Assembly: GCA_029263315.1 (NCBI GenBank)
Contig: JAJCXR010000048.1
Location: 265,768 to 329,767 of the forward strand
Origin: Acidobacteriota bacterium
GTDB taxonomy: Bacteria > Acidobacteriota > Thermoanaerobaculia > Multivoradales > J023
DNA: 64,000 nt
Reading direction: 5' to 3'
The first letter of the stretch is position 1. Each line of letters starts with the position of its first letter. Below the pieces are notes generated by a model, which was given only the letters and a program-made list of their open reading frames with translations, searched no databases and was not told where the DNA came from. A program made the translations under genes and the position numbers. Below are positions 4,276 through 25,110 of the stretch, piece by piece.

Positions 4276-7023
4276 TTGCCCGATGACTCACAGCTTTGGG
4301 ACGTAGCGACGGCGGTGAGGACGAGAGTGAGCACGGGGGTGAGTCGGAAGCGACGCTGGCGGGCCCCTGGGCTGCTAACATCCGCCCCCATGAATTTGCC
4401 CCCTGACCCGCTGCACGAGCGGATCTTCTGGCAGCGACTCGAGACTGCCCAGTGGACCGCCTGGTATAGCGACCGCACCGACCGCGACGACACCGAGGGC
4501 GAAGCCGATGCCGTGCTGTTGCGTCAGGTGGAAGGTCTGGAAGTTCTTAGCGACATCGATGTGCCGTTGCTGCGCCGGGTCCTCGACTGCTTGACGACGG
4601 ACCATGTTGAGCCCGCGGTGCGCAGTGGCGCCGACCTCCGTCGCCTCTTGACACCGCAGGTCGACGCCGACGCCCTGCGCCGCCTGTTGCAGCGGCTGGC
4701 CGGCAAGCTCCTGCGCTTCACCGCGGCACCTCCGACGGGTCGTCGAGCCGACGTCCCGGAAGCTCGCCCCTCCACACCCCCCTCTCCTCGGCTCCACTCC
4801 CCGACCACCGGCACCCTGACCATCCAACTCCTGGGCCAGGGTCCCTTCACCGCGGCCCTGGCCAAGGCCCTGACCCGACAACCTTTTGTTGCCGCCTTGC
4901 GCCAGACGGCGTTGGACGATGACTTGGTCGAGGTCGAGGAAGGGTCCGACGAAGGGTCTGTGGCAGTGGTGATCGGCGAGGACTGTAGCTATGCCGCTGT
5001 CCGCCGCTGCCAAGAGCTTTGCCTCGAGGCTGGGCGCAGCAGTCTCTACTTCGGGCTCGATATCGACGGGGTCCGCCTCGGCCCGTTGAATCTGCCCGGT
5101 TTGTCCCCCTGTTGGGGTTGCGCCCAGATTTCCCTGCTGGCCGCTGTCGGCGGTGATGCCCCAACGCTTTGCGACGCCGCCAACAATTTCTTTTACCTGG
5201 GTGCGTATGAGCTACCCGCACCGCGCCTCGACCTCGCCGCCCGCCATTTGATCGCCGCCCTGGAACGTCTGGCCGACCCCACCCGGCGCCCCTCTCTGCT
5301 CGGCCGTCTGCACCATTTCAGCCTCTCCGGCCGGGATTTCGAACCGGCGGTCGAGCACTCTCCGGATTGCCCCCTCTGCCGTCTCGTGGAGCCACCCGAG
5401 ACCCATGGCCATGCCCAGCCCGCCTCGGCGAGCTCTGCCCTGGTGCAGCGCGTCGAGGAGAGCCCTACCCTGGTCTGCTCTGAAGCAGCGGAGGTCCAGC
5501 GGGTGGCGGTCCTCGGCGGCGGTACGGCCGGCTATCTCTGTGCCTTGGCCCTGCGCCGCTATCTACCGCACTTAAAAATCGCCCTCATCGCCTCCAGTCG
5601 TCACCCGGTGATCGGTGTCGGCGAAGCGACGACGCCCCTGATGCCGCAGTTTCTGCACGCCGACTTGGAGTTGGATGTCGACGACTTTTTCGCCACCGTG
5701 CAACCGACCCTCAAGCTCGGCATCGATTTCCATTGGGGGCCACAACCCGAACACTGCTTCTCCTATCCCTTTGGCCCCCTGCGTCCCCTCGAATCCTTGA
5801 CCTACGACGGTCACCTGCGCCACGCCAGTTGGCGCAGCATGGCCATGGCTGCGGGCAAGATCAGTCTGCTCGCCGACGGCCCCAGGCTGCCGGACCTCGG
5901 AAGCGAGGTGGCCTATCACTTGGACAATCGGCGCCTGGTCGATTTCCTCGAAGGCCAAGCCCGAAAACGCGGGGTGCAGGTGATCGACGCTGAGATCGTC
6001 GACGCCGAGCTCGGGGACGCCGGCCGTTATGTCGACACCTTGCGCAGCCGCGACGGCCGTGCCTTGAAGCACGACCTCTACCTCGACTGTAGTGGTTTCC
6101 AGGGGGTGCTGATCAACCGCACGTTGAGGTCTCCCTGGGTCAGCTTCGGCAACAGCTTGCTGACCGATCGCGCCTGGGTCACCCAACGACCCCACGACGG
6201 CACCGAGGTGCCCCCCTTCACCCGCGCCACCGCCATGTCCCATGGCTGGTGCTGGAATACCCCGCAGCGGCATGCCGATCACCTGGGTTATGTCTTCGCC
6301 TCCGCCTTCGTTGAGCCACAGGAAGCCGCCGACGAGCTGCTGCGGCTGGTTCCGGAAGCCACGACGCCCCGCCTTGTCAGCTTCACCAGCGGCCGACGCC
6401 AACACATGCGCCAGGGCAACGTCGTCGCCTTGGGCAATGCCTATGGTTTTGTCGAGCCGCTCGAATCCACGGCCCTCCACATGCTGCTGCGCCAGCTCGG
6501 TTGGTTGATCGAGGGCTTCCCACGCCGGCGGATCGAAGCGGCGTCACAAGCCGCCCTCAATCGACGCAGCGCCGAGGCTTGGGATTACGTGCATTGGTTC
6601 CTGGCCTTGCATTTCCGCTTCCAAACCCACTACCCCACGCCCTTCTGGCAGGCCTGTCGCGAGACCGCAGACATTTCCCTGCACCACGAGCTCGTCGAGC
6701 ATTTCCAGGCCCATGGCCCCCTCGCCTACGATCAACAGCTCCACCGCACGGCACCAGCCGCCGATCCCCTGTGGGGTCTTGCGGGCATCGACCAAATTCT
6801 GCTCGGCCAAGGCTTGCCTTGCCCCCTCCCCAAGCCGCGCATGGGTCAAAGGTCATGGCGTCGCTACATGGCGGCCCGCCAACGACTGTTGCTGCATTCA
6901 TCGGAGCACGCCGAGGCATTGGATCGCCTGGCCGCCAGTCCCGAGCTGCGCCGAGCCCTGGCAGGCTCCTTCGTCGATCGCGGACCGGCCATGGGACCCA
7001 GACGAAGCTCGGGTAGGTTTTGA
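4276..7023 (+). CDS. two-domain protein: N-terminal E1/ThiF-like domain with two CxxC motifs fused to a C-terminal flavin-dependent tryptophan-halogenase-family domain
   Basis: C-terminal half: GGGTAGYLCALAL (GxGxxG), IGVGEATTP (PrnA 'IGVGEATIP'), TLKLGIDFHW (catalytic Lys region), GWCWNTP (WxWxIP), GFVEPLESTAL (halogenase 'GFxEPLESTG'). N-terminal half: LLGQGPFTAALAKAL Rossmann-like, CWGC ... CPLC ~90 aa apart; start codon uncertain (TTG 4276 / ATG 4390). Confidence 0.75.
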   Translation: MPDDSQLWDVATAVRTRVSTGVSRKRRWRAPGLLTSAPMNLPPDPLHERIFWQRLETAQWTAWYSDRTDRDDTEGEADAVLLRQVEGLEVLSDIDVPLLRRVLDCLTTDHVEPAVRSGADLRRLLTPQVDADALRRLLQRLAGKLLRFTAAPPTGRRADVPEARPSTPPSPRLHSPTTGTLTIQLLGQGPFTAALAKALTRQPFVAALRQTALDDDLVEVEEGSDEGSVAVVIGEDCSYAAVRRCQELCLEAGRSSLYFGLDIDGVRLGPLNLPGLSPCWGCAQISLLAAVGGDAPTLCDAANNFFYLGAYELPAPRLDLAARHLIAALERLADPTRRPSLLGRLHHFSLSGRDFEPAVEHSPDCPLCRLVEPPETHGHAQPASASSALVQRVEESPTLVCSEAAEVQRVAVLGGGTAGYLCALALRRYLPHLKIALIASSRHPVIGVGEATTPLMPQFLHADLELDVDDFFATVQPTLKLGIDFHWGPQPEHCFSYPFGPLRPLESLTYDGHLRHASWRSMAMAAGKISLLADGPRLPDLGSEVAYHLDNRRLVDFLEGQARKRGVQVIDAEIVDAELGDAGRYVDTLRSRDGRALKHDLYLDCSGFQGVLINRTLRSPWVSFGNSLLTDRAWVTQRPHDGTEVPPFTRATAMSHGWCWNTPQRHADHLGYVFASAFVEPQEAADELLRLVPEATTPRLVSFTSGRRQHMRQGNVVALGNAYGFVEPLESTALHMLLRQLGWLIEGFPRRRIEAASQAALNRRSAEAWDYVHWFLALHFRFQTHYPTPFWQACRETADISLHHELVEHFQAHGPLAYDQQLHRTAPAADPLWGLAGIDQILLGQGLPCPLPKPRMGQRSWRRYMAARQRLLLHSSEHAEALDRLAASPELRRALAGSFVDRGPAMGPRRSSGRF

Positions 7024-7219
7024 ATAAGCCGAGCCAGTCCGAATATCCCCAGCCCGTGCAACGTATCCAGCAATTGACCCCACCCGGGGCCGTTGCTAAG
7101 CTGGAGCAAGACTTTGCATCCGCAGCTCAACGAGCTCCCCGAACCGAATTCGAATCTGCTGGCGAGTCGGCGCGGAGCCCCTTGAACCCCTCCGCCCTCC
7201 TCGCCCGAAAGGAGCCTCC

Positions 7220-7996
7220 ATGTTTCGGCGTCTGGCCAATTTGTTCCGTGGCTTCATGAGCCTTTTTGTTTCTGGCATCGAAAAGGCCAATCCGCGAGCC
7301 CTCATTGAGGCCGAGAAAGAGAATCTGCGCCATCAGATAGGACGCTTCAATGAAAGTCTCGCCAACCACGCCGCGTTTGTCGAGCGGCTGATGCGGCAGA
7401 CCAAGACCCAAGAAAAGCAAGAAAGCGAGCTGGCCGCCAAGACCGCCGCCCACTTGAAGCTCGGACACCGTCAAGTGGCCGGCCAGTATGCCCTGCAGCT
7501 CAAGAACCTGCGCGAGCAACTGGAAGAGAACCGGAGCCAGCTAGAGGCCGCTGAGGTGACCTATAAAAAGCTGGTCAAGGCCCGCGATGTCTCGGTGCGT
7601 GAGGCGCAGCAGAAAATCGATGCCCTCAAGCGCATGATTTCCGAAGCGGAGATGCTCGAAGCCCAAGCCGAGCTGCAGGAGATGGCCCAAGGCATGATCA
7701 CCTCCATCGGCGGCTCCGGCGATACCCTGGCACGGGTCGAGGAATACCTCACCGAGCGCCGCGATCATGCGGCCGGACGCGCCCGCGTCGCCGCCGGCGC
7801 CGTCGATACCAACCAAGTGGACCTCATGGAAGCCGAGCAGGAAGCCTTGGGCGACCAAGCCTTGGCCGAGTTCGCATCCGCCTATGGCCTCGACATGCCG
7901 GCACCGGAGGTCACCGCCGACGCCAGCTCCGATGTCGCAGCGGCGCCACCGGTGGCGGCACCGATCAAGGACATGGGGCCGAGCGGCAACGCTTAA
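7220..7996 (+). CDS. pspA: PspA/IM30/Vipp1 family protein (phage-shock protein A-like)
   Basis: ~258 aa all-alpha coiled coil; N-terminus MFRRLANLFRGFMSLFVSGIEKANPRALIE... typical of PspA; aaaggag SD before ATG 7220. Confidence 0.85.
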   Translation: MFRRLANLFRGFMSLFVSGIEKANPRALIEAEKENLRHQIGRFNESLANHAAFVERLMRQTKTQEKQESELAAKTAAHLKLGHRQVAGQYALQLKNLREQLEENRSQLEAAEVTYKKLVKARDVSVREAQQKIDALKRMISEAEMLEAQAELQEMAQGMITSIGGSGDTLARVEEYLTERRDHAAGRARVAAGAVDTNQVDLMEAEQEALGDQALAEFASAYGLDMPAPEVTADASSDVAAAPPVAAPIKDMGPSGNA

Positions 7997-8083
7997 CCGG
8001 CATTTGGTCCACTGATTCCCTATTGAATCCCTTTAGACTCGATCCCAGACGGGAGCCCATCCCAAGCCCCACGGAGGAGCACC

Positions 8084-9811
8084 ATGGCCGATAGCGTTGG
8101 ACCCACGAAACTCGGAAAGCTCGTCATGTTCCTATTCATCATCGCCCTGTTGGCGGTGGGTGGATATTTCTTCAAAGATCTCTTGGCACCGACCGGCAAA
8201 AAGGCCGGCGATGTGGACCTCGACGCCTTTCGCGACCAGGCCAAACTCGAGGCCCCGGACACCCAAGGAGTCACCACGGTCAACGAATACTCCTACGTCG
8301 CCAGTGAAAGGCTCCCGGCGGTACAGGGGGTCAGCAACTATCAATGGGACGCCGATGACCCGGTGGTCGAATTTCCCATCAACGTGTGGATCGGCTGGCT
8401 GCCCATCGTCGCCGCCAACAATGGCTTCAGCCCCAATGAGGACTCGATCTTCTTCAAAGAATATGGCTTCAAGGTCAATCTCAAGCTGATCGACGATCCG
8501 GTGGTGGCCCGCGACGCCTTCGCCGCCGGTGAGAGCCACATCCTGTGGGGCACCTTGGACATGATGGTGCTCTTCGCCCCCGAGCTGATGAAAGACTCCC
8601 GCACCGCGCCGCGCATTCTGCAGCAGGTCGATTGGTCCAACGGCGGCGACGGCATCGTGGTGCGCGGTGATATCTCTTCGGCGCAGGACCTGCGGGGCAA
8701 GACGGTGGTCTACGCTCAGAACAGCCCCTCCCAGTACTTCTTGAACAACCTGTTGCTCAATGCCGGCGTGCAACCCGGCGAGGTCAATCACAAATACACC
8801 GCCAGCGCCTTCGAGGCGGCGGCGGCCTTTGTCTCCGACAAATCGATCGACGCCTGCGTCTCCTGGGCACCGGACATCTACAACATTCCCGACCGGGTGC
8901 CGGGCACCAAGATCCTCACCACCACCGTCGAAGCCAACAAGCTGATCGCCGATGTGTGGGCCGCCCGGGCCGACTTCGCCAAGGACCACCCCGACATCAT
9001 CAAGGGTTTGGTGGCGGGCATCTTCAAGGGCATGGAAGAGCTGGACGACCCCACCTTCAAAGCCCAGGCCTTCCAGTGGATGGCCGACGGCTACGGTTTT
9101 GCCGTCGACGAGGTGCAGGCCATGGAAGCGGACGCCCACTCCACCAACTTCGCCGAGAACAAGGGTTTCTTTCTCAATCAGAACAATCCTGCCAACTTCG
9201 AGCGCACCTGGAAGAACATCACCTTCGTCTACCGCGAGTTGGGAATTCTGGGGACGCCGGTGCGTTTCGACGAGGTCATGGACTTCTCGGCCATCAAGGC
9301 CCTGGATGCCGAAGGTTCCTTCGCTTCCCAGAAGGATGAGTACCAGACCAGCTTCGTGCCCACCTCCTACCGCAAGGTCCAGGCCGAGGCGCCGATTCTC
9401 ACCCAGACCATCCGTATCAATTTCTATCCCAACTCGTCGGACATCTACGAGCCGGAGCACGACGCTTCCGGCCGCGGTATCGCCGACACCCTCTATGACC
9501 CGTCCGTCAAGGCGACCATCGAAAGGGTGGGCCGCTTGGCCGGCCAATACGAGCGCGCCACCATCGCCGTCGTCGGCCACACCGACGCTTCGATGAAGGG
9601 CAGCGGCGTACGCTTTGAAGACGTGCAACAGCTCTCCCTCGAACGGGCCCAGTCGGTGCTGGACGCCCTGGTCAAGGAGTTCCAGTTCGACCCCAACAAG
9701 TTTGTCGTCGAGGGCGAGGGATGGAATGTACCGGCGGACCCGGAAGACGCCGGCAATCACGCCCTGAACCGGCGGGTGGAGATCTCCGTGTACCCACCGG
9801 AAGCCCAGTAG
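8084..9811 (+). CDS. membrane-anchored NMT1/SsuA-family ABC substrate-binding protein fused to C-terminal OmpA-like peptidoglycan-binding domain
   Basis: N-terminal TM (LVMFLFIIALLAVGGYFF), SsuA/TauA-like periplasmic fold, C-terminus 'IAVVGHTDASMKG...LSLERAQSVLDAL...NRRVEISVY' = OmpA_C consensus; ggagga SD. Confidence 0.75.
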   Translation: MADSVGPTKLGKLVMFLFIIALLAVGGYFFKDLLAPTGKKAGDVDLDAFRDQAKLEAPDTQGVTTVNEYSYVASERLPAVQGVSNYQWDADDPVVEFPINVWIGWLPIVAANNGFSPNEDSIFFKEYGFKVNLKLIDDPVVARDAFAAGESHILWGTLDMMVLFAPELMKDSRTAPRILQQVDWSNGGDGIVVRGDISSAQDLRGKTVVYAQNSPSQYFLNNLLLNAGVQPGEVNHKYTASAFEAAAAFVSDKSIDACVSWAPDIYNIPDRVPGTKILTTTVEANKLIADVWAARADFAKDHPDIIKGLVAGIFKGMEELDDPTFKAQAFQWMADGYGFAVDEVQAMEADAHSTNFAENKGFFLNQNNPANFERTWKNITFVYRELGILGTPVRFDEVMDFSAIKALDAEGSFASQKDEYQTSFVPTSYRKVQAEAPILTQTIRINFYPNSSDIYEPEHDASGRGIADTLYDPSVKATIERVGRLAGQYERATIAVVGHTDASMKGSGVRFEDVQQLSLERAQSVLDALVKEFQFDPNKFVVEGEGWNVPADPEDAGNHALNRRVEISVYPPEAQ

Positions 9812-9823
9812 GGACACCCGACG

Positions 9824-10873
9824 GTGAGCGAAGAACAGGGCAAGAAGAATCTCCATCGTGATCAGCGGGTCACGACGGACGATACGCTGGCCAACCCCGA
9901 AACGGGTGAAGGGCCGGTCACCGTCGTCGATGTGCCGTCGTCGGTCGAGGCTGTGGCACCGACAGGGGGCGCCACGCCAGTAGACGGCATGACGTCCCCC
10001 GGAGACCTGGCAGCGGCCGAGACGGCGTCGAAGGTCGCCGCTGTCGGGTCTGCCAGCGCCTCCGGCCGCGGCACGTGGTTGGAGATCCGGGGCACGCTTC
10101 CCCTGTGGCAAGTGTGGCTCCTGGGCATCGTGCCCATCGCCATGTTGCTGGGAGTCTGGTGGTTTATGACCCAGGGCCCGACGGTGGAAGAGCGCCTCCT
10201 GTCGCCGACCATTCTGCCGAGCCCCGGAGAGGTGGTGCGATCGTTCCCCAATCTGTGGTTCGATCGCGCCTTGACCCGCAACACCATGGTGTCCCTGCTG
10301 CGGGTGGTCGAGGGTTTCGCCGTGGCGGTGCTGATCGCTTTCCCCCTCGGCTTGCTGATGGGCTCCTTCTCCCGCGTCAAGGCCATGTTCCAGCCCCTGT
10401 CGGTGCTCGGCGCCTACTTGCCGATCCCGGCCCTGGTGCCCCTCACCTTGAGCTTGCTGGGGACCGGCGAGAAACAGAAGATCGGCTTCCTGGCCTTGGC
10501 CTTTGTCATTTACCTGCTGCCGCTGATCGTCGCCGCCGTCGATCAGGTGGATTCCATCTACTTGAAAACCGCTTACACCCTGGGGGCCAACAAGTGGCAG
10601 AGCGTCAGCAAGGTACTCTTGGGGGTGGCCTGGCCGGACATCTTCCAGGCCCTGCGTTTCGGCTTCGGCATCGGTTGGAGCTATATCCTGTTGGCTGAGA
10701 TGGTCGATATCGGCCGCGGCGTCGGCGGCTTGATCATCACCTCCCAGCGCCGTGGCCCACGGGAGCACATCTACCTGGTGCTGCTGGTCATCGTCGCCCT
10801 GGCCTTTGTCACCGACAAGCTATGGGCCACCCTCGGCCACTACCTCTTCCCCTATCGGAGGAAAGGAAGATGA
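9824..10873 (+). CDS. ABC transporter permease (SsuC/TauC-like, BPD_transp_1) with ~100 aa N-terminal extension
   Basis: 6 TM helices; conserved 'LLAEMVDIGRGVGGLIITSQRRG' permease motif region; GTG start. Confidence 0.8.
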   Translation: MSEEQGKKNLHRDQRVTTDDTLANPETGEGPVTVVDVPSSVEAVAPTGGATPVDGMTSPGDLAAAETASKVAAVGSASASGRGTWLEIRGTLPLWQVWLLGIVPIAMLLGVWWFMTQGPTVEERLLSPTILPSPGEVVRSFPNLWFDRALTRNTMVSLLRVVEGFAVAVLIAFPLGLLMGSFSRVKAMFQPLSVLGAYLPIPALVPLTLSLLGTGEKQKIGFLALAFVIYLLPLIVAAVDQVDSIYLKTAYTLGANKWQSVSKVLLGVAWPDIFQALRFGFGIGWSYILLAEMVDIGRGVGGLIITSQRRGPREHIYLVLLVIVALAFVTDKLWATLGHYLFPYRRKGR

Positions 10874-11706
10874 GCCCGTCGACGCAAGAGCTGCCGCCCA
10901 TCGTCGAGTTTCGCGATGTCGAGAAGACCTTCGCGGCCGGCACCCCCAAGGCCTACACCGCCCTCAAGGGTCTGAGCTTCCGGGTCGATGACCTGCCAGG
11001 GGTCGGCGAGTTCATTTCCGTCGTTGGCCCATCCGGCTGTGGCAAGTCCACCATCCTCAACCTGATCCAAGGCTTCGACGACGTCTACCCCCCCACCTCC
11101 GGCGATGTCCTGGTGCGCGGCAAGCCGGTGATCGGCCCCGGTCGGGATCGGGGCATGGTCTTCCAGCGCTACAGCTCGTTCCCCCACCGCACCGTGCTGC
11201 GCAATGTCACCTTCGGCTTGGAGATCCACCGCAAGGAGCTTGGCCTGAACCGTTCCACCATGGACGACATGGCCATGCAATGGATCAACAAGGTGGGCCT
11301 TGGGGGTCACGAGAGAAAGTACCCGCACCAGCTCTCCGGCGGTCAGCAGCAACGGGTGGCCATCGCCCGCAGCCTGGTGCTGAAGCCCCGCATCCTGTTG
11401 ATGGACGAACCCTTCTCCGCCCTCGACGAGCCCACCCGCTACGAAATGCAACGCCTGATCACCCAGCTGTGGCACGAGATCGAGGCGACGGTGTTCATCG
11501 TCACCCACTCCATTTCCGAAGCGGTCTTCCTCGGCGACCGGGTGTGGATGATTTCCCACGCCCCCGGCCACATCGCCCGGCAATTCGACGATTTGGTGCC
11601 TCCCACCCACGACGAGGACCCGCTTCTCGTCCAACAGAGCGACGACTTCAAGACCTCCGTGGGAATCGTCGCCAAGGCTTTCCATGACGTCGAATCCCAG
11701 CGTTGA
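10870..11706 (+). CDS. ABC transporter ATP-binding protein (SsuB/TauB-like)
   Basis: Walker A GPSGCGKST, signature LSGGQQQRVAIARSL, Walker B LLMDEPFSALD; ggagg SD then ATG 10870 overlapping the permease stop. Confidence 0.85.
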   Translation: MSPSTQELPPIVEFRDVEKTFAAGTPKAYTALKGLSFRVDDLPGVGEFISVVGPSGCGKSTILNLIQGFDDVYPPTSGDVLVRGKPVIGPGRDRGMVFQRYSSFPHRTVLRNVTFGLEIHRKELGLNRSTMDDMAMQWINKVGLGGHERKYPHQLSGGQQQRVAIARSLVLKPRILLMDEPFSALDEPTRYEMQRLITQLWHEIEATVFIVTHSISEAVFLGDRVWMISHAPGHIARQFDDLVPPTHDEDPLLVQQSDDFKTSVGIVAKAFHDVESQR

Positions 11707-11732
11707 GGCATAGCACGGGGCCATAGCAGAGC

Positions 11733-12608
11733 ATGCCAGCCAAATCACTGAACTACTTCGATTATTTGAAAGCGGCCTTCCATCGTCGCTGGCCGGTGCC
11801 GGGCCTCGGGCCCTTGCCGGTCAACTACATGGCCTTGGGAGCCTTCGGCGTCTTGTCGTTGGCCAATCCTGGATTTCTCTTCATCGGCGCCGCCGCCGAG
11901 CTCATTTACCTGTTCTCCTTGGCTAGCAATCAGCGCTTCCAAAAGGTGCTGCAAGGGGAAGCCCTGCAAGACAAGCAACAGAGCTGGGAGGCGGAGATCG
12001 AGGCCGCCCTGGCCCGTTTGTCGACCGCTTCCCAGGCCAGGTTCAGTTATCTGCTGACCCAATGTCGGCAGATTCTCGGCATCGGCGAAGCGATGGGAGA
12101 CCGCGACTTGATGGGCATGTCGCAAATGCGCACCGGCGGTCTCAACCAGCTGTTGTGGATCTTTCTGCGGCTGCTGGCTTCGCGCGAGGTTCTGGAGCAG
12201 AACCTGAGCCGGGTCGATCCGGCCGCCTTGGAGAAAGAAGTGCAGCAATTGGAGAAGCGCCTGGAAAAAGCTGAGGAAGGTTCCGCCTTGGCCCGCTCCC
12301 TCGGCGGCTCCCTGGACATCCTGACCAAGCGCCTCGAGAACCTCGAGCGGGCCAAGGAAAGCATGACGGTGATCGACGCCGAGATCGAGCGCATCCAGCA
12401 CCAAGTGGTGCTCATCCGCGAAGAGTCGGCGGTGACCGGAAAGGCCGAGATCCTATCCAGCCGCCTCGATGCGGTGTCCGGCGCCCTGGCCGATACCAAT
12501 CGCTGGATGGAGCAAAACGCCACCATTTTCGGTGAGTTGGGGGCCGATCCCCTGGGCAGCACACCCCGCAACCTGCCCACCCTTCCCCACGCGGCAGACG
12601 AAACCTGA
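11733..12608 (+). CDS. hypothetical protein: 2 N-terminal TM helices + long coiled coil
   Basis: TM segments (PLPVNYMALGAFGVLSLA, FLFIGAAAELIYLFSLA) then heptad-rich region; stop overlaps start of downstream AAA ATPase (TGATG). Confidence 0.6.
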   Translation: MPAKSLNYFDYLKAAFHRRWPVPGLGPLPVNYMALGAFGVLSLANPGFLFIGAAAELIYLFSLASNQRFQKVLQGEALQDKQQSWEAEIEAALARLSTASQARFSYLLTQCRQILGIGEAMGDRDLMGMSQMRTGGLNQLLWIFLRLLASREVLEQNLSRVDPAALEKEVQQLEKRLEKAEEGSALARSLGGSLDILTKRLENLERAKESMTVIDAEIERIQHQVVLIREESAVTGKAEILSSRLDAVSGALADTNRWMEQNATIFGELGADPLGSTPRNLPTLPHAADET

Positions 12609-14509
12609 TGAGCCGAAGGCGGCGATCGATGGAGCCCGACCCGATGAAACCCGCCGCAGCCCAAGCTGACAAGACCAAGATGCCCAAGTCGTCCGTCAAC
12701 CCCTTGGCACCGTGGGCAGAAGAGGTGCGGCAGCTCTTCCGTTCGGGCAGCGCCAGCCAATTCATTCTGCATGGCAACGTGCACGACTTCGTGCCCAAGA
12801 AGCCGCCGGCCACCCACGACGGCAGCAGCCCGCCGGAGGGCGCCCTACGCTCCCTGCGCGGTTTTCTCACCGAGGTCATGTTCGAGCCCTTCGATGTGGT
12901 CATCCATTACGACCGCGGCCGTGGCATCCGCGTCAAGAAGGGGGGCGATCACTTTCATCGCTTTCTCGAAGCCTTCGACACCTTCCGCGGCACCGATTGG
13001 GCCAAGCTGCCCACCTCCCCCGGCGACAGCCTGGACCTCGGCTCCACCTTGCCGCGGGACGCCGTCCGTGCCCTGGAGCTGATCAACCGTTTTGTGCGCG
13101 GCAGCCAAGCCTTGACCCGGGTCGACAAACAAGGCAAGCGCCATCCCGATCCCCTCAAGGTGGCCGTCTTGCTGGAGCACGCGCAGTTCATCGCCCCCCG
13201 GGCCGACGCCCTGCACCTCTCCGGCGACAACAGCCAGGTGCTCATCCAGCTCTTGGATTGGGCCAGCGATCCGGCCATCACCAGCGCTTTCGTCGCCACC
13301 TTCTTGGTGACCGACACCCTCAACGACCTGAGCCAGTCCCTGGTGGCCAACCCCTTCAACGCCAAGGTGAGCATCCCCCTGCCCGACGCCGACGAGCTCC
13401 GGGACTTCGTGCACCTATTGACCGACCACGAAACCACCTTCGACGAGCTGTCGCAGGTCAGCCGCGACCAGTTGGCGGAGAAGCTCGTGGGCTTGTCGCG
13501 GGTCAATGTACGGGCCTTGATCCTGCGGGTGCTGCGCAACCACGAGAAACTCACCCACGAACGGGTGAGCGAGCTGCGCAAGCAACTGATCGAGAAGCAA
13601 GCCTCCGGCCTCATCGCCTTCATCGAAAGCGACCGCACCCTCGACGACGTGGCCGGCCACGTCGAAGCCAAGGCCTGGCTGCGTCAAGATGCCGAGCTGT
13701 TGCGTCGCGGGCGGATACGCGCTTTGCCCATGGGCTACCTGCTGGCCGGTCGCATCGGCACCGGCAAGACCTTCCTGGTGGAATGCCTGGCCGGTGAGGT
13801 GGGCATCCCGGTGGTGCAGATCAAAAACTTTCGCGACAAATGGGTCGGCGCCACCGAAGGCAACTTGGAGACCATCTTCACCATCTTGCACGCCCTCGGC
13901 CAAGTGTTGGTCTTCGTCGACGAAGCCGATCAGGCCACCGGTAAACGGGGCGGCGGCCTCGGCGACGGCGGGCTCGGGGGTCGCATCTACGGCATGCTGG
14001 CCAAAGAAATGTCCGACACCCGCAACCGCGGCAAGATCCTTTGGGTCTTCGCCACCAGCCGTCCCGACCTCTTGGAGGTCGACCTCAAACGGCAAGGCCG
14101 CCTCGATGTCCACATCCCCCTCTTCCCGCCCCAAGACGCCAAGAGCCGGGCCGACCTCTTCTACGCTATGGCCCGCAAGGTGGGCTTCGAGGTCAAGAAG
14201 AAGGATCTACCGACCTTGCCCGAGAGCCATCAAATCGGCGGCAACGAAATGGAGGGCATCCTGGTGCGCTCCCTACGCCTCTTCGAAACCCGCGACGAAG
14301 ACGACGATCGTTCCATGCGGCAGATCATCGCTGCGGTGATCAAAGATTTCCGTCCCTCCGCCCATGTCGACCGTCTCGAAATGATGGACTTGCTGGCCGT
14401 CAAGGAGTGCACCGATCGTCGTTTCCTGCCGGAGCGCTATCGGGATCTCGACCTGGCCGAGGTCAATCAACGATTGCGGGAGCTGAAGCTGCGCATCGGG
14501 GAGTTTTGA
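12608..14509 (+). CDS. AAA-family ATPase (classic clade with SRH), long N-terminal domain containing a degenerate P-loop-like segment
   Basis: Walker A GRIGTGKTF, Walker B VFVDEAD, SRH 'ATSRPDLLEVDLKRQGRLD'; N-terminus has 'FILHGNVHDF' degenerate Walker-A-like segment. Confidence 0.8.
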   Translation: MSRRRRSMEPDPMKPAAAQADKTKMPKSSVNPLAPWAEEVRQLFRSGSASQFILHGNVHDFVPKKPPATHDGSSPPEGALRSLRGFLTEVMFEPFDVVIHYDRGRGIRVKKGGDHFHRFLEAFDTFRGTDWAKLPTSPGDSLDLGSTLPRDAVRALELINRFVRGSQALTRVDKQGKRHPDPLKVAVLLEHAQFIAPRADALHLSGDNSQVLIQLLDWASDPAITSAFVATFLVTDTLNDLSQSLVANPFNAKVSIPLPDADELRDFVHLLTDHETTFDELSQVSRDQLAEKLVGLSRVNVRALILRVLRNHEKLTHERVSELRKQLIEKQASGLIAFIESDRTLDDVAGHVEAKAWLRQDAELLRRGRIRALPMGYLLAGRIGTGKTFLVECLAGEVGIPVVQIKNFRDKWVGATEGNLETIFTILHALGQVLVFVDEADQATGKRGGGLGDGGLGGRIYGMLAKEMSDTRNRGKILWVFATSRPDLLEVDLKRQGRLDVHIPLFPPQDAKSRADLFYAMARKVGFEVKKKDLPTLPESHQIGGNEMEGILVRSLRLFETRDEDDDRSMRQIIAAVIKDFRPSAHVDRLEMMDLLAVKECTDRRFLPERYRDLDLAEVNQRLRELKLRIGEF

Positions 14510-14932
14510 CGATCCGGGGAATCCACCCGACCTTGGCGTCCCTCGGACGCAGCGCCATCCGGCGCCGTTCAGCCCGATCGGGCAGGCGAAATCCAGGCAA
14601 GAGCATCTGTCAGCTGGGGCAAGGCGCTGCAACGGGGGAGATTGCGATCTGGACCACAAGCGGTGGGACAAGAGGGGGTAGCTTCGGCGAGATGACGGTT
14701 TGGAATGGGGCCCTCTGACCTACCTCCGATGAAGCAGCCTACCCCACAGCCTTAAGACCCAAGAAATCTCCGAGCATTCTAGCGGATCCATTGCCAGATC
14801 CACAAGGAGCCTCGTGGTGCCAAAGACCGCCGATTCCGTATTATTTTGACACCTTCGCCTAGCTTTTGGCCCCGGAGGTGACCAGGCGCCAGCGGCGAAG
14901 TGGTCGAGGCGGCTCTAGAGCTGGCGACCCGC

Positions 14933-17312: not shown

Positions 17313-18914
17313 TCAATCGAATTCGACGCGAATCACCAGCTGCCGCCCCTCGGGACGGAGCTCGGTCACTCTCACACTGGAACCGGTCAAGTCGAGCACC
17401 AACCGCAGCTCCTTGCCGCCATTGCGTTCGTTGAGACCGGAGCGGATTTGTCGCACGCCGGGGCCACCCACCGCCAGGGTCTTTTCACCGTAGCCGACGC
17501 CGATGCCGAGAAGCTGGATCACTTCCCTGGGAGAATCCCCACCGAGGCGAAAGCTCTTGACCCGGCGGCTCGGTATTTGGCCGTCGGCGGTGACGGTGAT
17601 CTCGAGACCTTGCCCGGCCCGACGCCATTGGATGTCCTCGATGCGTCGCATTTCCGGACCTGCGGACGCGGCGGGCGGAGGCGGGGCCGCCTCGGCACTG
17701 GAGGGGCTCGTCGGCGGTGGCTCGGCTCGAGAAGCCGGCCCCCTTGGTGGGCTGGCGACGGCGTCCACCGGCACCTCTACACCCACCTGCGGCGCCGCCT
17801 GGGTAGCGGTACTCCCACCTGCAGAACCTTCTTGGCCGGCCGTCGGTGAGCCGGCGGACGTTGGCTCTGCCATGGTTCCGATTTGGCTCGGTAACGGCTC
17901 ATCCATGGGCGGCGGCGGACCAAAGATGCGATCCCTGAAGAAGAATACCAACAGGGCCAGCACCACTCCCAAGATCAGCAAAGGCAGCAATGAGGACCGT
18001 CTCTTGGGACGTCGAGAGGTTTTACGGGGCACCTGTGGCATGGCTGGCGCGTCGGCAGCGCCGAAGGTCGGGGCGTCGATGGCTCCGGTGAGCTCGGGGT
18101 CCGGATGCCACACGGGCTCCTGCTCACGGGCATTGAGGTCGATGGGAGCGTCGTCGAAGTACGACGGTGCGCCGGGCGCCGATGCGCCGGGTGTCGACGG
18201 GGCAGCCGCGAACGGGGCGGATGGGGCTGGCGACTCGCCCACCGACTCGACGGCCTCGCCGGGCCATGGCGAGGGTGCGCCGCCCTCGAAGGTACCGGAT
18301 TCACCTGCGGCCTGGGCATCAAGTGTCGAAAGCTCTTCCGTCGTAGCCCGGTCTCGAGGGAGGGGCGACAACTCGGCTGCGGCGCCATAGCGCAGAGCCG
18401 ATGGTGACGCCACGTCACTGGGCCTGGCAGGGCTCACCTGCGGTGCATTCTTCACCGGCGGATCCGGTGGCTGAAGTATCTCGCCGCTCGGCTGGGCGGG
18501 GGCCGGATCCAGGCTCATGGGCGGACGGCTGGCCAAGCGCTCCTTGATATACTGACTCACCAGCTTGAAGATGAGCTGACGATCCTGTTGTTCCAAAAAG
18601 CGAAACTTGATGCCGATGCCGGACTCATGGCCGGGGCCGAAGGCCTTGCTCCGCACCCAGACGACCTCGGCCAATCCCCGGATGGAGCTGTCGTCGTCGA
18701 GCACCAGCTCGAAGCGCACTAAGCTGCCGTGGGCGCAATCCACACTGGCCTCAATGAACATGCCGCCGATGGAAATATTGCGGCAAACCCCTTCGGCGAT
18801 GTCCGAGGTGCCGTCGAATTGCAGCCGGATGGGCTTGCCGACGGGAGCTCGGGTGGCGGTGCGTTGCGGAGAGGAATCTTGTGTCGTCATGGGGGTGTCC
18901 AGTTGGCGCCCCAT
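17313..18914 (-). CDS. PilZ-domain protein with central TM helix and C-terminal AMIN-like domain
   Basis: PilZ motifs RTATR (RxxxR) and NISIGGMFI (D/NxSxGG); Pro/Ala-rich linker; TM 'LLPLLILGVVLALLVFFF'; C-terminal 'LRLVLDL...VIRVEF' AMIN-like; start ambiguous (18914/18890/18941). Confidence 0.7.
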   Translation of the reverse strand: MGRQLDTPMTTQDSSPQRTATRAPVGKPIRLQFDGTSDIAEGVCRNISIGGMFIEASVDCAHGSLVRFELVLDDDSSIRGLAEVVWVRSKAFGPGHESGIGIKFRFLEQQDRQLIFKLVSQYIKERLASRPPMSLDPAPAQPSGEILQPPDPPVKNAPQVSPARPSDVASPSALRYGAAAELSPLPRDRATTEELSTLDAQAAGESGTFEGGAPSPWPGEAVESVGESPAPSAPFAAAPSTPGASAPGAPSYFDDAPIDLNAREQEPVWHPDPELTGAIDAPTFGAADAPAMPQVPRKTSRRPKRRSSLLPLLILGVVLALLVFFFRDRIFGPPPPMDEPLPSQIGTMAEPTSAGSPTAGQEGSAGGSTATQAAPQVGVEVPVDAVASPPRGPASRAEPPPTSPSSAEAAPPPPAASAGPEMRRIEDIQWRRAGQGLEITVTADGQIPSRRVKSFRLGGDSPREVIQLLGIGVGYGEKTLAVGGPGVRQIRSGLNERNGGKELRLVLDLTGSSVRVTELRPEGRQLVIRVEFD

Positions 18915-19109
18915 CGTAGCGCACTCTGCGCCGCTATGCATCTTCCTCGATCACTCTCCTCGGCACCAACCCGGGGGCGTTCAGCGGTATGATCGCACCC
19001 CGCGACGGACGACTCCACCGGGTTCTTTCGGCAGGTCGTTGCAGCAGACCGTCGTCCATGCCGATATCGAGCTGGCGGGGCCCCGGTCCGCTTGCCAAGG
19101 AGGTCTCGA

Positions 19110-22149: not shown

Positions 22150-23577
22150 TCAACCCAACACGGCGGCGCTCTTTGGATACAGGGACTTCAACACCTCAGC
22201 CGACGCCCCGCGCAAGGTCGGGGCCAGGCGTTCGGCCAAGTCCTCGCGGCTGCCCCGCTGGGCTTCTTTCCATGCCCCTTGCAGGGTTTCATGATGTCGC
22301 GACAGCTGGCGTTCGACCGCCTCTCGCCATCGGCCATGGGCTTCTTCCCGCTGGAACTCGCCGCGACCACGACCGAAATGGGCCACCGCCAAGTAGCGTA
22401 GGAGCAACTGCTCGCTGAGCTCGTCGAGGAAGGCCGGGGACCACGCCACCGCCGGTGTCTTATCGCCGCTGAGCTCGCGGTAACCCTTGGCCAGACCAGC
22501 GCCGCCCAAGGCGCCGAGGATGGCGCCGGCCACCACCCCGCCGCCGAAGGTCAGGCCACCGGCCAGCAGGTCCGCCGCCAGACCACCGACGGCACCGCTG
22601 ACGACGCCCGCTAACAGGGCACTCTTCTCGGTCTCCAGCAACTCGCCGCGCACCAGGAAAGCCTCGAGGGCGGTTTCCAGAGCCTCACCCGCTTGCCCCT
22701 CCAGGCCGTGCAGGAGCAATAGATCGGCCATCAACTCTTCGGTCTGGTGCTGCAGCCGTCGCGCCAGGCTGGCCATGCCCTGCTGCCGATCTTGCTTGCG
22801 CAGGCCGGTGCTCAATCCACGACGCTGCGGCAGCGACTCGCGATCCGTCGCCGCTCGAGCCAAGTAGTCGGCCATGGCGGCGATGGCCTGGTCGAAGATA
22901 TCGAGGTTGCGCCGGTTCCAGGCCGCCACCAGCTCTTCCATCAAGGGGCGGGAGGTTTCCGGAAGATGGTGTTGCAGGGCCTCAAAGAGGCTGCCCTCCT
23001 GCACCCAACAACGGGAAAAGGCGTCCAGGGCCATGATCTCCACCACCCGCGGCCAACGCTGGCAATGGTGGCGCCACAGGGCCAGACGGGCCTCCATCTG
23101 ACGGGGGGTGTGCACCGCCTCACCACTTTGGTTGAGCAGCACGACGATGGGCCGCTCCATCCAGTCCAGCAGCTCCAGCTCCGGTTCCACATAACCCGCC
23201 GACGCCGGTTCCTCGCTGTCGTTGACCAGGTAAAGCACCACGTCCGCTTCCTGCCGCACATTGACCGCCGCCTGCTGGGCACACCACAGGGGACGATCGG
23301 TGAAGCGGTCCCACACCTGCGAGACAAACCAGCCGATGGGATTCTCCTGCTGCTGCAAGCGGCGCAACAACCGTACCGAATCGCCGAAACCCGGCGTGTC
23401 CCACAGGATGAGCTCGCCATGCTGGCTGGCGATCAGCGGATAGGCGGTGTTTTGATCGGTGACATGGGCTTGGTCCAAGACCTCGCCGACATCACGCCGC
23501 AGCAGGGTGCGGGCCAGGGTGGTCTTGCCGACATTGGTGTGGGAAACCAAGCTCAGGGTGATGCGTTGCTCCGTCAC
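22150..23577 (-). CDS. P-loop GTPase with C-terminal Gly-zipper membrane segment (DUF3482-like)
   Basis: G1 'SHTNVGKTT', G3 'DTPGFGD'; C-terminal 'GVVSGAVGGLAADLLAGGLTFGGGVVAGAILGALGGAGL'; GTG start preceded by ggagga and overlapping upstream stop (GTGA). Confidence 0.7.
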   Translation of the reverse strand: MTEQRITLSLVSHTNVGKTTLARTLLRRDVGEVLDQAHVTDQNTAYPLIASQHGELILWDTPGFGDSVRLLRRLQQQENPIGWFVSQVWDRFTDRPLWCAQQAAVNVRQEADVVLYLVNDSEEPASAGYVEPELELLDWMERPIVVLLNQSGEAVHTPRQMEARLALWRHHCQRWPRVVEIMALDAFSRCWVQEGSLFEALQHHLPETSRPLMEELVAAWNRRNLDIFDQAIAAMADYLARAATDRESLPQRRGLSTGLRKQDRQQGMASLARRLQHQTEELMADLLLLHGLEGQAGEALETALEAFLVRGELLETEKSALLAGVVSGAVGGLAADLLAGGLTFGGGVVAGAILGALGGAGLAKGYRELSGDKTPAVAWSPAFLDELSEQLLLRYLAVAHFGRGRGEFQREEAHGRWREAVERQLSRHHETLQGAWKEAQRGSREDLAERLAPTLRGASAEVLKSLYPKSAAVLG

Positions 23578-25099
23578 TTCTCCTCCAAGCTGCCGGGCGG
23601 CCAAGCCACGGTGGGAAATCGCAACAGGTCGGCGTCCTGGGGTGACTCCAAATCCAAGACCAAGGGCTTGATGGACAATGGATCGAGCAGCCGCCGCCAA
23701 GCGGCGCGCTTTTCGTCGAGCCGAGCGGCCACCACCTCGCCTTGCTGGCGACGCCGATACGGCCCGCTATCGACCCAAACCACCAACGACTGGCCGGGGG
23801 CGAGCACTTCCTGCAATTGTCGCAGCAGCTCGCCGTGCACCTCTTTCTCCGGCGTCTGGGCCAGGTTGAAGATGATCACCAAGCAACGGCCCCGAGGCGG
23901 CTCGGTGTCATCCAGCAGATCGCCGTAGGCCAAGGACGCCGCCAAGCGCACTTGGCAGCGCCGGCCGAAGACGTCCAACAGGAGCCGTTGCCCCTGTTCC
24001 GCCGCCTTGCTGGACGGCTGGTAGCTGTAGGGCCAGACATCCACTTGGTGGGCCACGGTTTGCCCCGCGGCCAGCAGACGGCGACGATAAACCTCCGGCA
24101 GTTGCACCGGCAAGCGCTTCTCGAGGCGACGCACCCGCCAGCTCTCCCAGAGCCACGCCAGGGCCCTCGGTAGGCCCACGAAGAGTAAGGCGGTGGCGGC
24201 CCACAGATGAATGAAGGGGGCGGCGTCGAAGGTCTCCGGCCACGGATAGAGAGCCACCGAAGGGATCTCCATCTGCAAGAGCTTGCTGGCCGGTGCCAAT
24301 ACCAGTCCGAGGATGGCGTCCACCTGCTCGCCGTCGAGGAAGGTGCTTTCCCACCCCACCCGGTACTCCCGCACCAGCCCCCTCACATACATGCCGGCCA
24401 CCGTACCGGCCACCAGGGCGCTGGAACCGACGTGCAGCAGGCGACGTAAACGAGCCGCCAGGAGCGGTGCCTGGGCGACGGACCAGAGGCTGAGGAAATG
24501 CAGCAGGCTGCGGGCCAGCAAGCCGTCTTCCCCTGCCACCGCGTCGTCGTCCCCTTGAGTCTTGGACGACCCCTTGGGCAGCTTGGACGACCCCTTGGGC
24601 AGCAACGACGGCAGCCGACGCATCGATCGTCCCTGCAACCAGGCGACCCAGCGGGCCACCGGCGCGGGTTTCGGCAGCCCAGAAGGCAACAGGCCGAGGA
24701 GGAAGGAGAGGGATAGGACGCCGACATTCCAAACCACCAGCACCATCAAGGGAACTGCTAGGACGCTGATCTGGCGAGCCGACCCCAAACCTTGGGACGC
24801 CAGGCCGAGGAGACCGGAGACCACCGCAACCGGCCACGTCCAACGACCGTCGAAACGACTCCAACGGCGGAGCTTGGGGAGCTCCGGAAAGCGCTGATCC
24901 AAGTCTTTCAGCAGGGCCTCAGCACGCCCCGCCAAGGCGTCCGCCTCGCGCCCCTTGGAAGCGCCGACGCCAGACGCCAGGTGGGCCTCGGTCGCCAGCC
25001 GACGGGCACCATGGCTGAGCAAAACCCCGCCCCGGTCCGTTTCCTCGATGGCCTGCACGAGGAGCACCGCCTGGGCAGGCTCCTCGGCCAATCGAAGCA
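23574..25099 (-). CDS. hypothetical polytopic membrane protein (DUF2868-like) translationally coupled to downstream GTPase
   Basis: several TM helices, repeat 'PKGSSKLPKGSSK'; start must lie after KAS stop (~25110) - GTG ~25099 proposed (track ORF extends to 25256). Confidence 0.5.
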
Positions 25100-25110
25100 C
25101 CGACCGCGTG

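Follow-up and report, generated by a model that had tools for sequence, protein, structure and literature searches.

A pspA operon ending in a tandem AAA ATPase gene in an Acidobacteriota genome: a possible bacterial analogue of the ESCRT-III/Vps4 module

Does a bacterial operon that opens with pspA and closes with the gene for a classic-clade AAA ATPase encode a membrane-remodelling module of the ESCRT-III/Vps4 kind? The question is raised by a stretch of 64,000 nucleotides (nt) from the genome of an Acidobacteriota bacterium of the class Thermoanaerobaculia (assembly GCA_029263315.1, contig JAJCXR010000048.1, positions 265,768 to 329,767), called the window below, in which six open reading frames (ORFs) on the forward strand fill positions 7220–14509. 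In order, they encode a divergent protein of the PspA/IM30 family, part of the ESCRT-III superfamily (pspA, 7220–7996, 258 amino acids (aa)); the substrate-binding protein (SBP, 8084–9811), permease (9824–10873) and ATP-binding subunit (10870–11706) of an ABC importer; a membrane-hairpin coiled-coil protein of 291 aa that belongs to no Pfam or NCBIfam family, here called TMcc (11733–12608); and a tandem AAA ATPase of 633 aa (PF00004, classic clade; 12608–14509). We put the chances at about even that this cassette is an inner-membrane maintenance and remodelling module, in which the AAA ATPase turns over the PspA polymer in the fashion of Vps4. The disassembly of PspA/Vipp1 polymers in bacteria is an open question, and the cassette provides a concrete, widely conserved candidate remodeller. 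An initial annotation, made from the sequence alone, had called the operon a possible ESCRT-III/Vps4-like module. The functional linkage in that proposal is strongly corroborated by the conserved gene order and by a minimal locus described below, but the ATPase is not Vps4-like in its architecture or its nearest kin.

The six genes are tightly packed, with very short gaps or translational coupling at their junctions. The pspA stop codon (7996) is separated from the SBP start (8084) by 87 nt, one less than first annotated, although the ORFs, their coordinates and all other gaps agree with that annotation. There are 12 nt between the SBP and permease genes, and 26 nt between the ABC ATPase gene and TMcc, while the permease and ABC ATPase genes overlap by 4 nt (ATGA, 10870–10873) and the TMcc and AAA ATPase genes by 1 nt (TGATG, 12606–12610). 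An alternative ATG for the ABC ATPase lies upstream at 10822; homologue alignments begin at the 10870 start. Good Shine-Dalgarno sequences precede pspA and the SBP gene. A scan of the window detected no terminator-like site between any of the six genes. The possibility of a terminator, attenuator or riboswitch in the pspA–SBP gap was considered and ruled out: the gap folds no better than shuffled sequence (z = 0.17) and has no Rfam match, and its counterparts in 114 orthologous loci vary in sequence and are short, at a median of 58 nt; four contain T-runs and four TTGAC. Neither in the window nor in these 114 gaps does an internal promoter cut pspA off from the genes behind it. The earlier statement that this gap holds no hairpin or terminator is therefore upheld. 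From the gene layout we infer, with good support, that the six genes form one transcription unit.

The same arrangement recurs in many genomes. A scan restricted to one genome per species returned 369 genomes with a relative of the ATPase, and the best 80 loci were examined, synteny being determined by tblastn with the window proteins; genome loci were counted if they extended at least 6.2 kb upstream of the ATPase gene. All six genes, in the same order and on the same strand, are present in 56 of these 61 loci. The reciprocal test took PspA in metagenome contigs as its starting point; here, 10 of the 14 loci with enough downstream sequence have the complete cassette, and in the shorter contigs the gene following pspA is that of the SBP, with its OmpA domain, in 49 cases out of 50. 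Both searches combined give a complete cassette in 66 of 75 loci with enough flank (88%) and, since six genes recur in the same order in so many, the arrangement is far beyond chance. Neighbourhood conservation of PspA and the AAA ATPase, which the initial annotation had named as a check on its idea, is thus found across phyla. Complete cassettes occur in Acidobacteriota, Eisenbacteria, Krumholzibacteriota, Riflebacteria and Methylomirabilis. Among the best 80 loci, those from Acidobacteriota carry the labels Thermoanaerobaculia, Holophagae, Vicinamibacteria and Terriglobia, and others are labelled Eisenbacteria, Krumholzibacteriota, Riflebacteria/Ozemobacteraceae, Methylomirabilis and Gemmatimonadota, together with several metagenome-assembled genomes (MAGs) labelled Proteobacteria. 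The genes that flank the cassette in the window (halogenase, DUF1295, aminotransferase) are conserved beside it in none of the examined genome loci. Within the cassette, TMcc starts within 150 nt of the ABC ATPase gene in 69 of 69 loci, and lies directly upstream of the AAA gene, again by no more than 150 nt, in 65 of 72. Median identity to the window proteins is 74% for the SBP, which is the most conserved cassette gene, 71% for PspA, 69% for the permease, 67% for the ABC ATPase, 62% for the AAA ATPase and 48% for TMcc. In seven loci from Riflebacteria and Methylomirabilis (L059–L061, L071–L073 and L080), a second SBP-OmpA paralogue is found about 25 nt before pspA (e.g. L060:2222–3985), and the operon probably starts there, one gene earlier; the conserved promoter motif described below (TTGACn…TTGCTA) was not found before pspA in these seven.

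An informative variant is an Acidobacteriota MAG locus (L022:8121–11833) that consists only of PspA, TMcc and the AAA ATPase, with no ABC importer genes anywhere in its 22 kb; it would make a natural minimal system for experiments. The operon has a published precedent. Ravi, Anantharaman, Aravind and Gennaro (mSystems 2024, PMC11237479) list an identical gene order in their Table S3, namely PspA, PBPB+OmpA, permease, ABC ATPase, TM+Snf7, and an inactive AAA plus a classical AAA, with OGG56892.1 of Candidatus Handelsmanbacteria as the example, and propose an ATP-dependent membrane remodelling comparable to Snf7/Vps4 and linked to solute transport. They also report an AAA–PspA dyad in Clostridium, and this pair, together with the PspA–TMcc–AAA arrangement of L022, makes the link between PspA and the ATPase independent of the transporter. 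The present cassette belongs to their operon class, sharing its gene content and order, the two-domain ATPase with an inactive N-terminal copy, the SBP-OmpA fusion and the functional proposal, and differing in coming from an Acidobacteriota genome. The hypothesis is thus already published, from comparative genomics; a literature search found no experimental test of it. What is added here are synteny counts taken from both ends, a wider range of phyla, a promoter, the PspA tail motif and the affinity of the ATPase to the D2 domain of Cdc48, so that the value of the analysis lies in corroborating and sharpening a published idea, and not in discovery.

The first gene product matches PF04012 (PspA_IM30) at 37.9 bits against a cutoff of 33.9, over residues 2–218 of the protein and 3–214 of the 220 positions of the model, in line with its first annotation as PspA/IM30. 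All 24 orthologues tested also match this model (best E 9.5e-12), and identity to the window protein ranges from 56 to 80% across loci. When the family profile was compared with solved structures, no PspA or Vipp1 match was obtained by sequence at E values up to 10, and for this reason the protein is regarded as a divergent subfamily; it is Pfam, and that alone, which places it among the PspA proteins. As read from the sequence, a hydrophobic or amphipathic N-terminal helix (MFRRLANLFRGFMSLFVSGIEK) is followed by a coiled-coil body, and that by a variable linker. The N-terminus is conserved in the 24 orthologues as MF.RL.NL.RGF.SLF.SG.E, with R4, G11, F12, L15 and F16 invariant.

At the other end of PspA, the Ala/Pro/Glu-rich variable linker is followed by a short tail motif, KDMGP (7967–7981, forward strand; residues 250–254), four residues before the stop. 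Its main form is [KR][DEG][ML]GP, with a median of five residues after it, and a relaxed version, [KRQ][DEGNQ][ML]G[PL], occurs within the last 25 residues of 136 of 138 PspA orthologues. Since an AAA unfoldase, or its adaptor domain, would grip a conserved peptide of this kind at the tip of a flexible tail, the motif may be the tag by which the AAA ATPase recognises PspA. ESCRT-III proteins similarly carry C-terminal MIM motifs, to which the PspA tail motif is a parallel. The motif is also kept in loci without an adjacent ATPase gene, which speaks neither for nor against a role as a tag.

The AAA ATPase has thousands of database relatives, the best 120 of which are all at least 62% identical. 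It forms a family of its own and does not fall inside a housekeeping family; grouping with such a family is what the initial annotation would have counted against its proposal. The NCBI model of the protein starts at M13, and residues 1–33 are disordered. An AlphaFold2 model (pLDDT 78) contains an alpha/beta domain with a helical lid (residues 35–340), an AAA module (341–~560) and extra C-terminal helices, and on this basis the protein can be divided into D1 (residues ~35–340, 12710–13627, forward strand) and D2 (~341–633, 13628–14509, forward strand). D1 has ILHGNVHDF where the P-loop, GxxxxGK[ST], would be expected, and hhalign finds no similarity between the N-terminal and C-terminal halves, so internal duplication is not shown by sequence. 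D1 is considered degenerate because of these two features, and its apparent AAA-like nature is visible only in the predicted structure. It is predicted to bind the substrate or a partner; the region holds this degenerate AAA-like domain and not the MIT-like fold that the initial annotation had suggested looking for.

D2, by contrast with the P-loop-less D1, is an active-type AAA module of the classic clade (PF00004, 8.3e-22, residues 378–504), which carries a lid and, at its C-terminus, an additional helical region that is conserved. Walker A (GRIGTGKT, 381–388) and Walker B (VFVDEAD, 435–441) are invariant in 31 family members, the second region of homology (SRH; ATSRPDLLEVDLKRQGRLD, 482–500) with Arg fingers R495 and R498 is conserved in the same set, and pore loop 1 (KWVG, 411–414) has W412 and G414 invariant or nearly so. 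The Walker and SRH strings had been read correctly from the window sequence alone. As the Walker motifs, Arg fingers and pore loop do not vary, the protein should be an active, substrate-threading unfoldase. The best matches of D2 in the PDB are the D2 domains of Cdc48/p97/VAT (E 7e-34 to 1e-32), its NCBIfam scores are 71 bits for CDC48, 67 for FtsH, 53 for PAN and 37 for CdvC, and its SRH (LKRQGRLD) is of the Cdc48/FtsH type.

The relationship to Vps4 can now be stated more closely. Like ESCRT-III/Vps4 of eukaryotes and Asgard archaea and CdvB/CdvC of the TACK archaea, the cassette places the gene of an ESCRT-III-superfamily protein beside that of a classic-clade AAA protein, the ATPase has Arg fingers and a pore loop with an aromatic residue (KW[VLM]G), and the polymer protein carries a short conserved motif at the tip of its flexible C-terminal tail. 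However, Vps4 and CdvC have a single AAA cassette with nearest kin of the meiotic type (Vps4, katanin, spastin, CdvC), while the present ATPase has the tandem D1/D2 arrangement, no MIT domain, an SRH of the Cdc48/FtsH type and a CDC48 score of 71 bits against 37 for CdvC. The polymer protein, moreover, is of the PspA branch and not the Snf7 branch, and an ABC importer is embedded in the operon. Without an MIT domain, with tandem D1/D2 and with Cdc48/p97 D2 as its nearest sequence, the ATPase could be no more than an analogue of Vps4 in function, and is no homologue of it; the relation of the two systems would be convergence, not orthology. Type II AAA proteins with an inactive first ring (Pex1/Pex6, Cdc48/p97/VAT, NSF/Sec18) differ from the cassette ATPase, which has no double-psi barrel or N-domain before D1, has lost all nucleotide-binding motifs in D1 and retains no detectable sequence similarity between D1 and D2, and is shorter (633 aa) with an additional conserved C-terminal helical region. 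In Chlamydomonas chloroplasts, the chaperones HSP70B-CDJ2-CGE1 assemble and disassemble VIPP1 oligomers. The common point is a proposed ATP-driven chaperone that governs how far a polymer of the IM30/PspA family is assembled, but this chaperone is an Hsp70 and not an AAA protein, and no operon links the genes. A literature search for Ycf46 in connection with Vipp1 found nothing.

TMcc, which is nearly always found next to the ATPase, is less readily placed. AlphaFold2 (pLDDT 75) models it as all-helical: an amphipathic helix at the N-terminus is followed by two short hydrophobic helices, which a conserved NPG separates into a hairpin (residues ~30–65, nt 11820–11927), and then by a long coiled-coil bundle on the cytoplasmic side, ahead of a Pro-rich tail (…NLPTLPHA). 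Clustering at 50% leaves 1411 representatives of the family. In PMC11237479, the counterpart of TMcc is labelled 'SIG+TM+Snf7'. No Snf7 or PspA match to Pfam was found among 34 close and 44 diverse family members, hhalign against the PspA profile gives a probability below 1%, and the TMcc profile retrieves only coiled-coil noise from the PDB. With Foldseek, the best match has an E value of 0.26 and CdvB2 appears at rank 35 (E 1.5); with phmmer, there is one match to yeast SNF7 (E 2.1). The published 'Snf7-like' call is not reproduced by these searches, to which all-helical proteins are poorly suited. Lineages differ in the form of the Pro-rich TMcc tail: LPxLP in the nearest, Thermoanaerobaculia-like relatives, PPPPPR..QRQR in Vicinamibacteria and SGPPI...PPP in Riflebacteria. 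LPxLP resembles the proline-type MIM2 of ESCRT-III, although the cassette has no MIT domain to bind it.

The three genes between pspA and TMcc (8084–11706) have the composition of a NitT/TauT-type importer, to which they are assigned by an SBP of the NMT1/SsuA/TauA type, a BPD_transp_1 permease and a TauB-like ATPase. The SBP is anchored in the membrane by its N-terminus and combines an NMT1/SsuA/TauA-like periplasmic binding domain (residues ~100–390) with a C-terminal OmpA-like peptidoglycan-binding domain (472–570, ending …NRRVEISV). Its Pfam matches are OmpA (5.7e-09) and NMT1 (1.4e-07), its NCBIfam matches are all far under the equivalog cutoffs, and it is weakly similar to osmolyte-type binding proteins (OpuAC, E 0.0099; TauA). 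The permease is TauC/SsuC/SaoP-like (BPD_transp_1 1.8e-14; NCBIfam SaoP 4e-31 and TauC 4e-27, both under cutoff), and the ATP-binding subunit TauB/NrtCD-like (ABC_tran 6.3e-28; NCBIfam TauB 7e-58, under cutoff). Profile searches thus bear out the three-gene importer of the initial annotation, in which the OmpA domain had gone unmentioned. The N-terminal ~90 aa of the permease (window 9824–10100) are rich in Glu, Thr, Pro and Val and are not conserved, orthologue alignments by tblastn beginning at about residues 50–85; this extension may represent disordered sequence on the cytoplasmic side, or translation may in fact begin at a later codon.

This importer is at the centre of an alternative explanation, according to which the ATPase and TMcc serve a transporter or envelope complex as an assembly chaperone or extractase similar to Msp1/ATAD1, FtsH or Cdc48, and PspA is co-expressed to seal the membrane. 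It would account for the transporter genes being both the most conserved and placed between pspA and the TMcc–AAA pair, for D2 being closest to Cdc48/p97/VAT and FtsH, which extract or unfold membrane or complexed proteins, and for TMcc being not detectably ESCRT-III-like. On the other hand, L022 keeps PspA, TMcc and the AAA ATPase without a transporter and the Clostridium dyad is AAA and PspA alone, the four loci that lack an ATPase gene (L086, L103, L112 and L084; see below) keep the transporter, and a conserved, exposed tail motif on PspA is what the substrate of an unfoldase would carry. This explanation is therefore viewed as unlikely, although it deserves to be kept in mind.

The regulation of the operon bears on a second alternative. 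A putative promoter of the sigma-70 type is located at 7074–7102 on the forward strand, approximately 120–145 nt 5′ of the pspA ATG, and consists of a −35 element TTGACC (7074–7079), a spacer of 17 nt and a TGC-extended −10 element TAAGCT (7097–7102). A simple consensus promoter scan did not pick it up, but the comparison of orthologues did: of 127 orthologous regions upstream of pspA, 68 contain TTGACn-N13-15-TTGCTA, at a median position of −120, against a background rate of about 1% of 250-nt windows, and this is its single occurrence in the 64-kb window (7074–7098). Such conservation points to promoter function. Sigma-54/PspF-type control was also considered and rejected, as the best −24/−12 matches upstream of pspA in the 127 loci do not exceed background.

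Proteobacterial PspF-PspABC systems resemble the cassette in that an effector of the PspA/IM30 family is linked to an AAA+ protein. They differ from it in their other features, since no PspF, PspB or PspC domain is present in any of the six proteins, and Pfam and NCBIfam profile searches of the ATPase revealed no Sigma54_activat domain, GAFTGA motif or helix-turn-helix; in both respects, the first annotation had it right. A PspF-like logic in reverse is nevertheless conceivable, with PspA binding and inhibiting the AAA ATPase and releasing it under membrane stress to act on another target. E. coli PspA, which binds and inhibits the AAA+ protein PspF (PMC7619361), is a precedent, and gene linkage suits a regulator and its target equally well. 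Yet the ATPase is a classic-clade unfoldase lacking features for binding DNA or interacting with sigma-54, the upstream regions have no sigma-54 promoter signal, the degenerate D1 and the pore loop point to polypeptide threading, and the minimal cassette of L022 encodes no other target, so that this logic appears decidedly improbable.

If, as we prefer, the cassette is a remodelling module, a plausible mechanism would be as follows. PspA, with its N-terminal amphipathic helix, would assemble on the cytoplasmic face of the inner membrane and have TMcc as its membrane-embedded partner or platform. The AAA ATPase would form a ring, the degenerate D1 binding and the active D2, with its aromatic pore loop, threading, and it would engage an exposed tail, most likely the C-terminal [KR][DEG][ML]GP motif of PspA, the Pro-rich end of TMcc, or both. 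By pulling subunits out of the assembly with ATP, it would bring about polymer turnover as Vps4 does on ESCRT-III, although the enzyme would be of the Cdc48 type and would have arisen separately. The ABC importer, having its SBP anchored in the inner membrane and tethered to peptidoglycan through the OmpA domain, would couple the module to uptake or sensing of a periplasmic solute, or of the envelope state. Presumed in this scheme are co-transcription, the contacts between the proteins, what the ATPase acts on, that it acts in the direction of disassembly, and what the transporter contributes.

A number of observations weigh against it. The interaction between PspA and the ATPase is deduced from gene neighbourhood, and the ATPase is separable, for in L035, L063 and L091 there are 3–9 kb of unrelated genes inserted before it, including those for a SpoIIE-HAMP-Cache phosphatase, a metallophosphoesterase and an AhpC/TSA protein. 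Three metagenome loci (L086, L103 and L112), which make up a sublineage, keep the genes from PspA through SBP, permease and ABC ATPase to TMcc but have no AAA gene in the next 3.7–5.5 kb (the ORFs downstream of TMcc in L103 match no Pfam family), and in L084 neither TMcc nor the ATPase follows the ABC gene. Neither sequence nor predicted structure shows an MIT domain in the N-terminal region of the ATPase, and D2 is nearer to Cdc48 and FtsH than to Vps4/CdvC. Vps4 recognises ESCRT-III through its MIT domain. The ESCRT analogy also does not explain the transporter genes, the most conserved of the cassette. Finally, a dedicated remodeller is not strictly required, because PspA has intrinsic nucleotide-dependent dynamics according to a 2024 structural study (PMC11746142), in which the disassembly factor of PspA is left open and unspecified chaperones or PspF are invoked.

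The displaced or locally absent ATPase genes would be understandable if the cassette were simply a co-regulated envelope or osmotic stress operon, whose stabiliser, importer and generic chaperone act independently with no physical interaction, and the weak similarity of the SBP to binding proteins of the osmolyte type (OpuAC, TauA) is in keeping with this. Strict gene order, overlapping codons, 88% complete cassettes and non-conserved flanks are, however, typical of the subunits of one machine, and TMcc and the ATPase family are rarely apart (adjacent in 65 of 72 loci). Co-regulation as the whole explanation is therefore thought to be quite unlikely, and turnover of the PspA polymer by the ATPase is retained as the preferred reading.

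A bolder version of that reading is that several phyla hold a functional ESCRT-III/Vps4 counterpart which arose independently of the archaeal one, and in which a Cdc48-type tandem ATPase recognises the conserved tail of a specialised PspA, and perhaps the Pro-rich TMcc tail too, and threads it so as to take the polymer apart, the cycle being coupled to a peptidoglycan-tethered importer that reports on the envelope. We offer this as a tentative suggestion, more readily doubted than asserted. If true, it would overturn the statement of a 2025 review (PMC7619361) that a Vps4-like ATPase appears to be absent in bacteria. Reconstitution has ready handles in the PspA tail motif, the pore-loop residue W412, Walker B residue E439 and the minimal locus L022.

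An anti-phage defence or mobile-element module was also considered, because PADLOC gave weak domain-level matches of the ATPase to AAA proteins of the IetA/IteA type and of the ABC ATPase to mad3. These matches are generic and far below family thresholds (NCBIfam IteA, 33.8 bits against a cutoff of 510), the cassette has ordinary chromosomal neighbours, uniform composition and protein identities of 50–80% across phyla, and the defence or mobile-element explanation, being hardly credible, was rejected.

The neighbours of the cassette include a tRNA-synthetase-like gene, an ABC-F ATPase, an aminotransferase and a MiaB-like radical SAM enzyme. Immediately upstream, at 4276–7023 on the forward strand, is an ORF of 915 aa that ends 196 nt before pspA and is not conserved beside the cassette elsewhere; its C-terminal ~440 residues belong to the tryptophan-halogenase family (PF04820, E 2e-105), and its N-terminal ~400 residues match no Pfam family. 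Downstream, the ~420 nt between the convergent AAA and DUF1295 genes (14510–14932) hold neither a convincing ORF of 80 aa or more nor a consensus terminator. The Pfam match of the DUF1295 protein begins at residue 106, so its true start is probably well inside the listed ORF of 347 aa. On the reverse strand, 17313–18941 encodes a protein of 542 aa in which a PilZ domain at the N-terminus (E 1.6e-11) is joined by a long low-complexity linker, rich in Pro and Ala, to a C-terminal domain without assignment. Further away, about 8 kb from the cassette and also on the reverse strand (22150–25256), are a GTPase in which MMR_HSR1 is fused to DUF3482 and then an ORF of 560 aa without a Pfam match, which together may represent a paired membrane-associated GTPase system.

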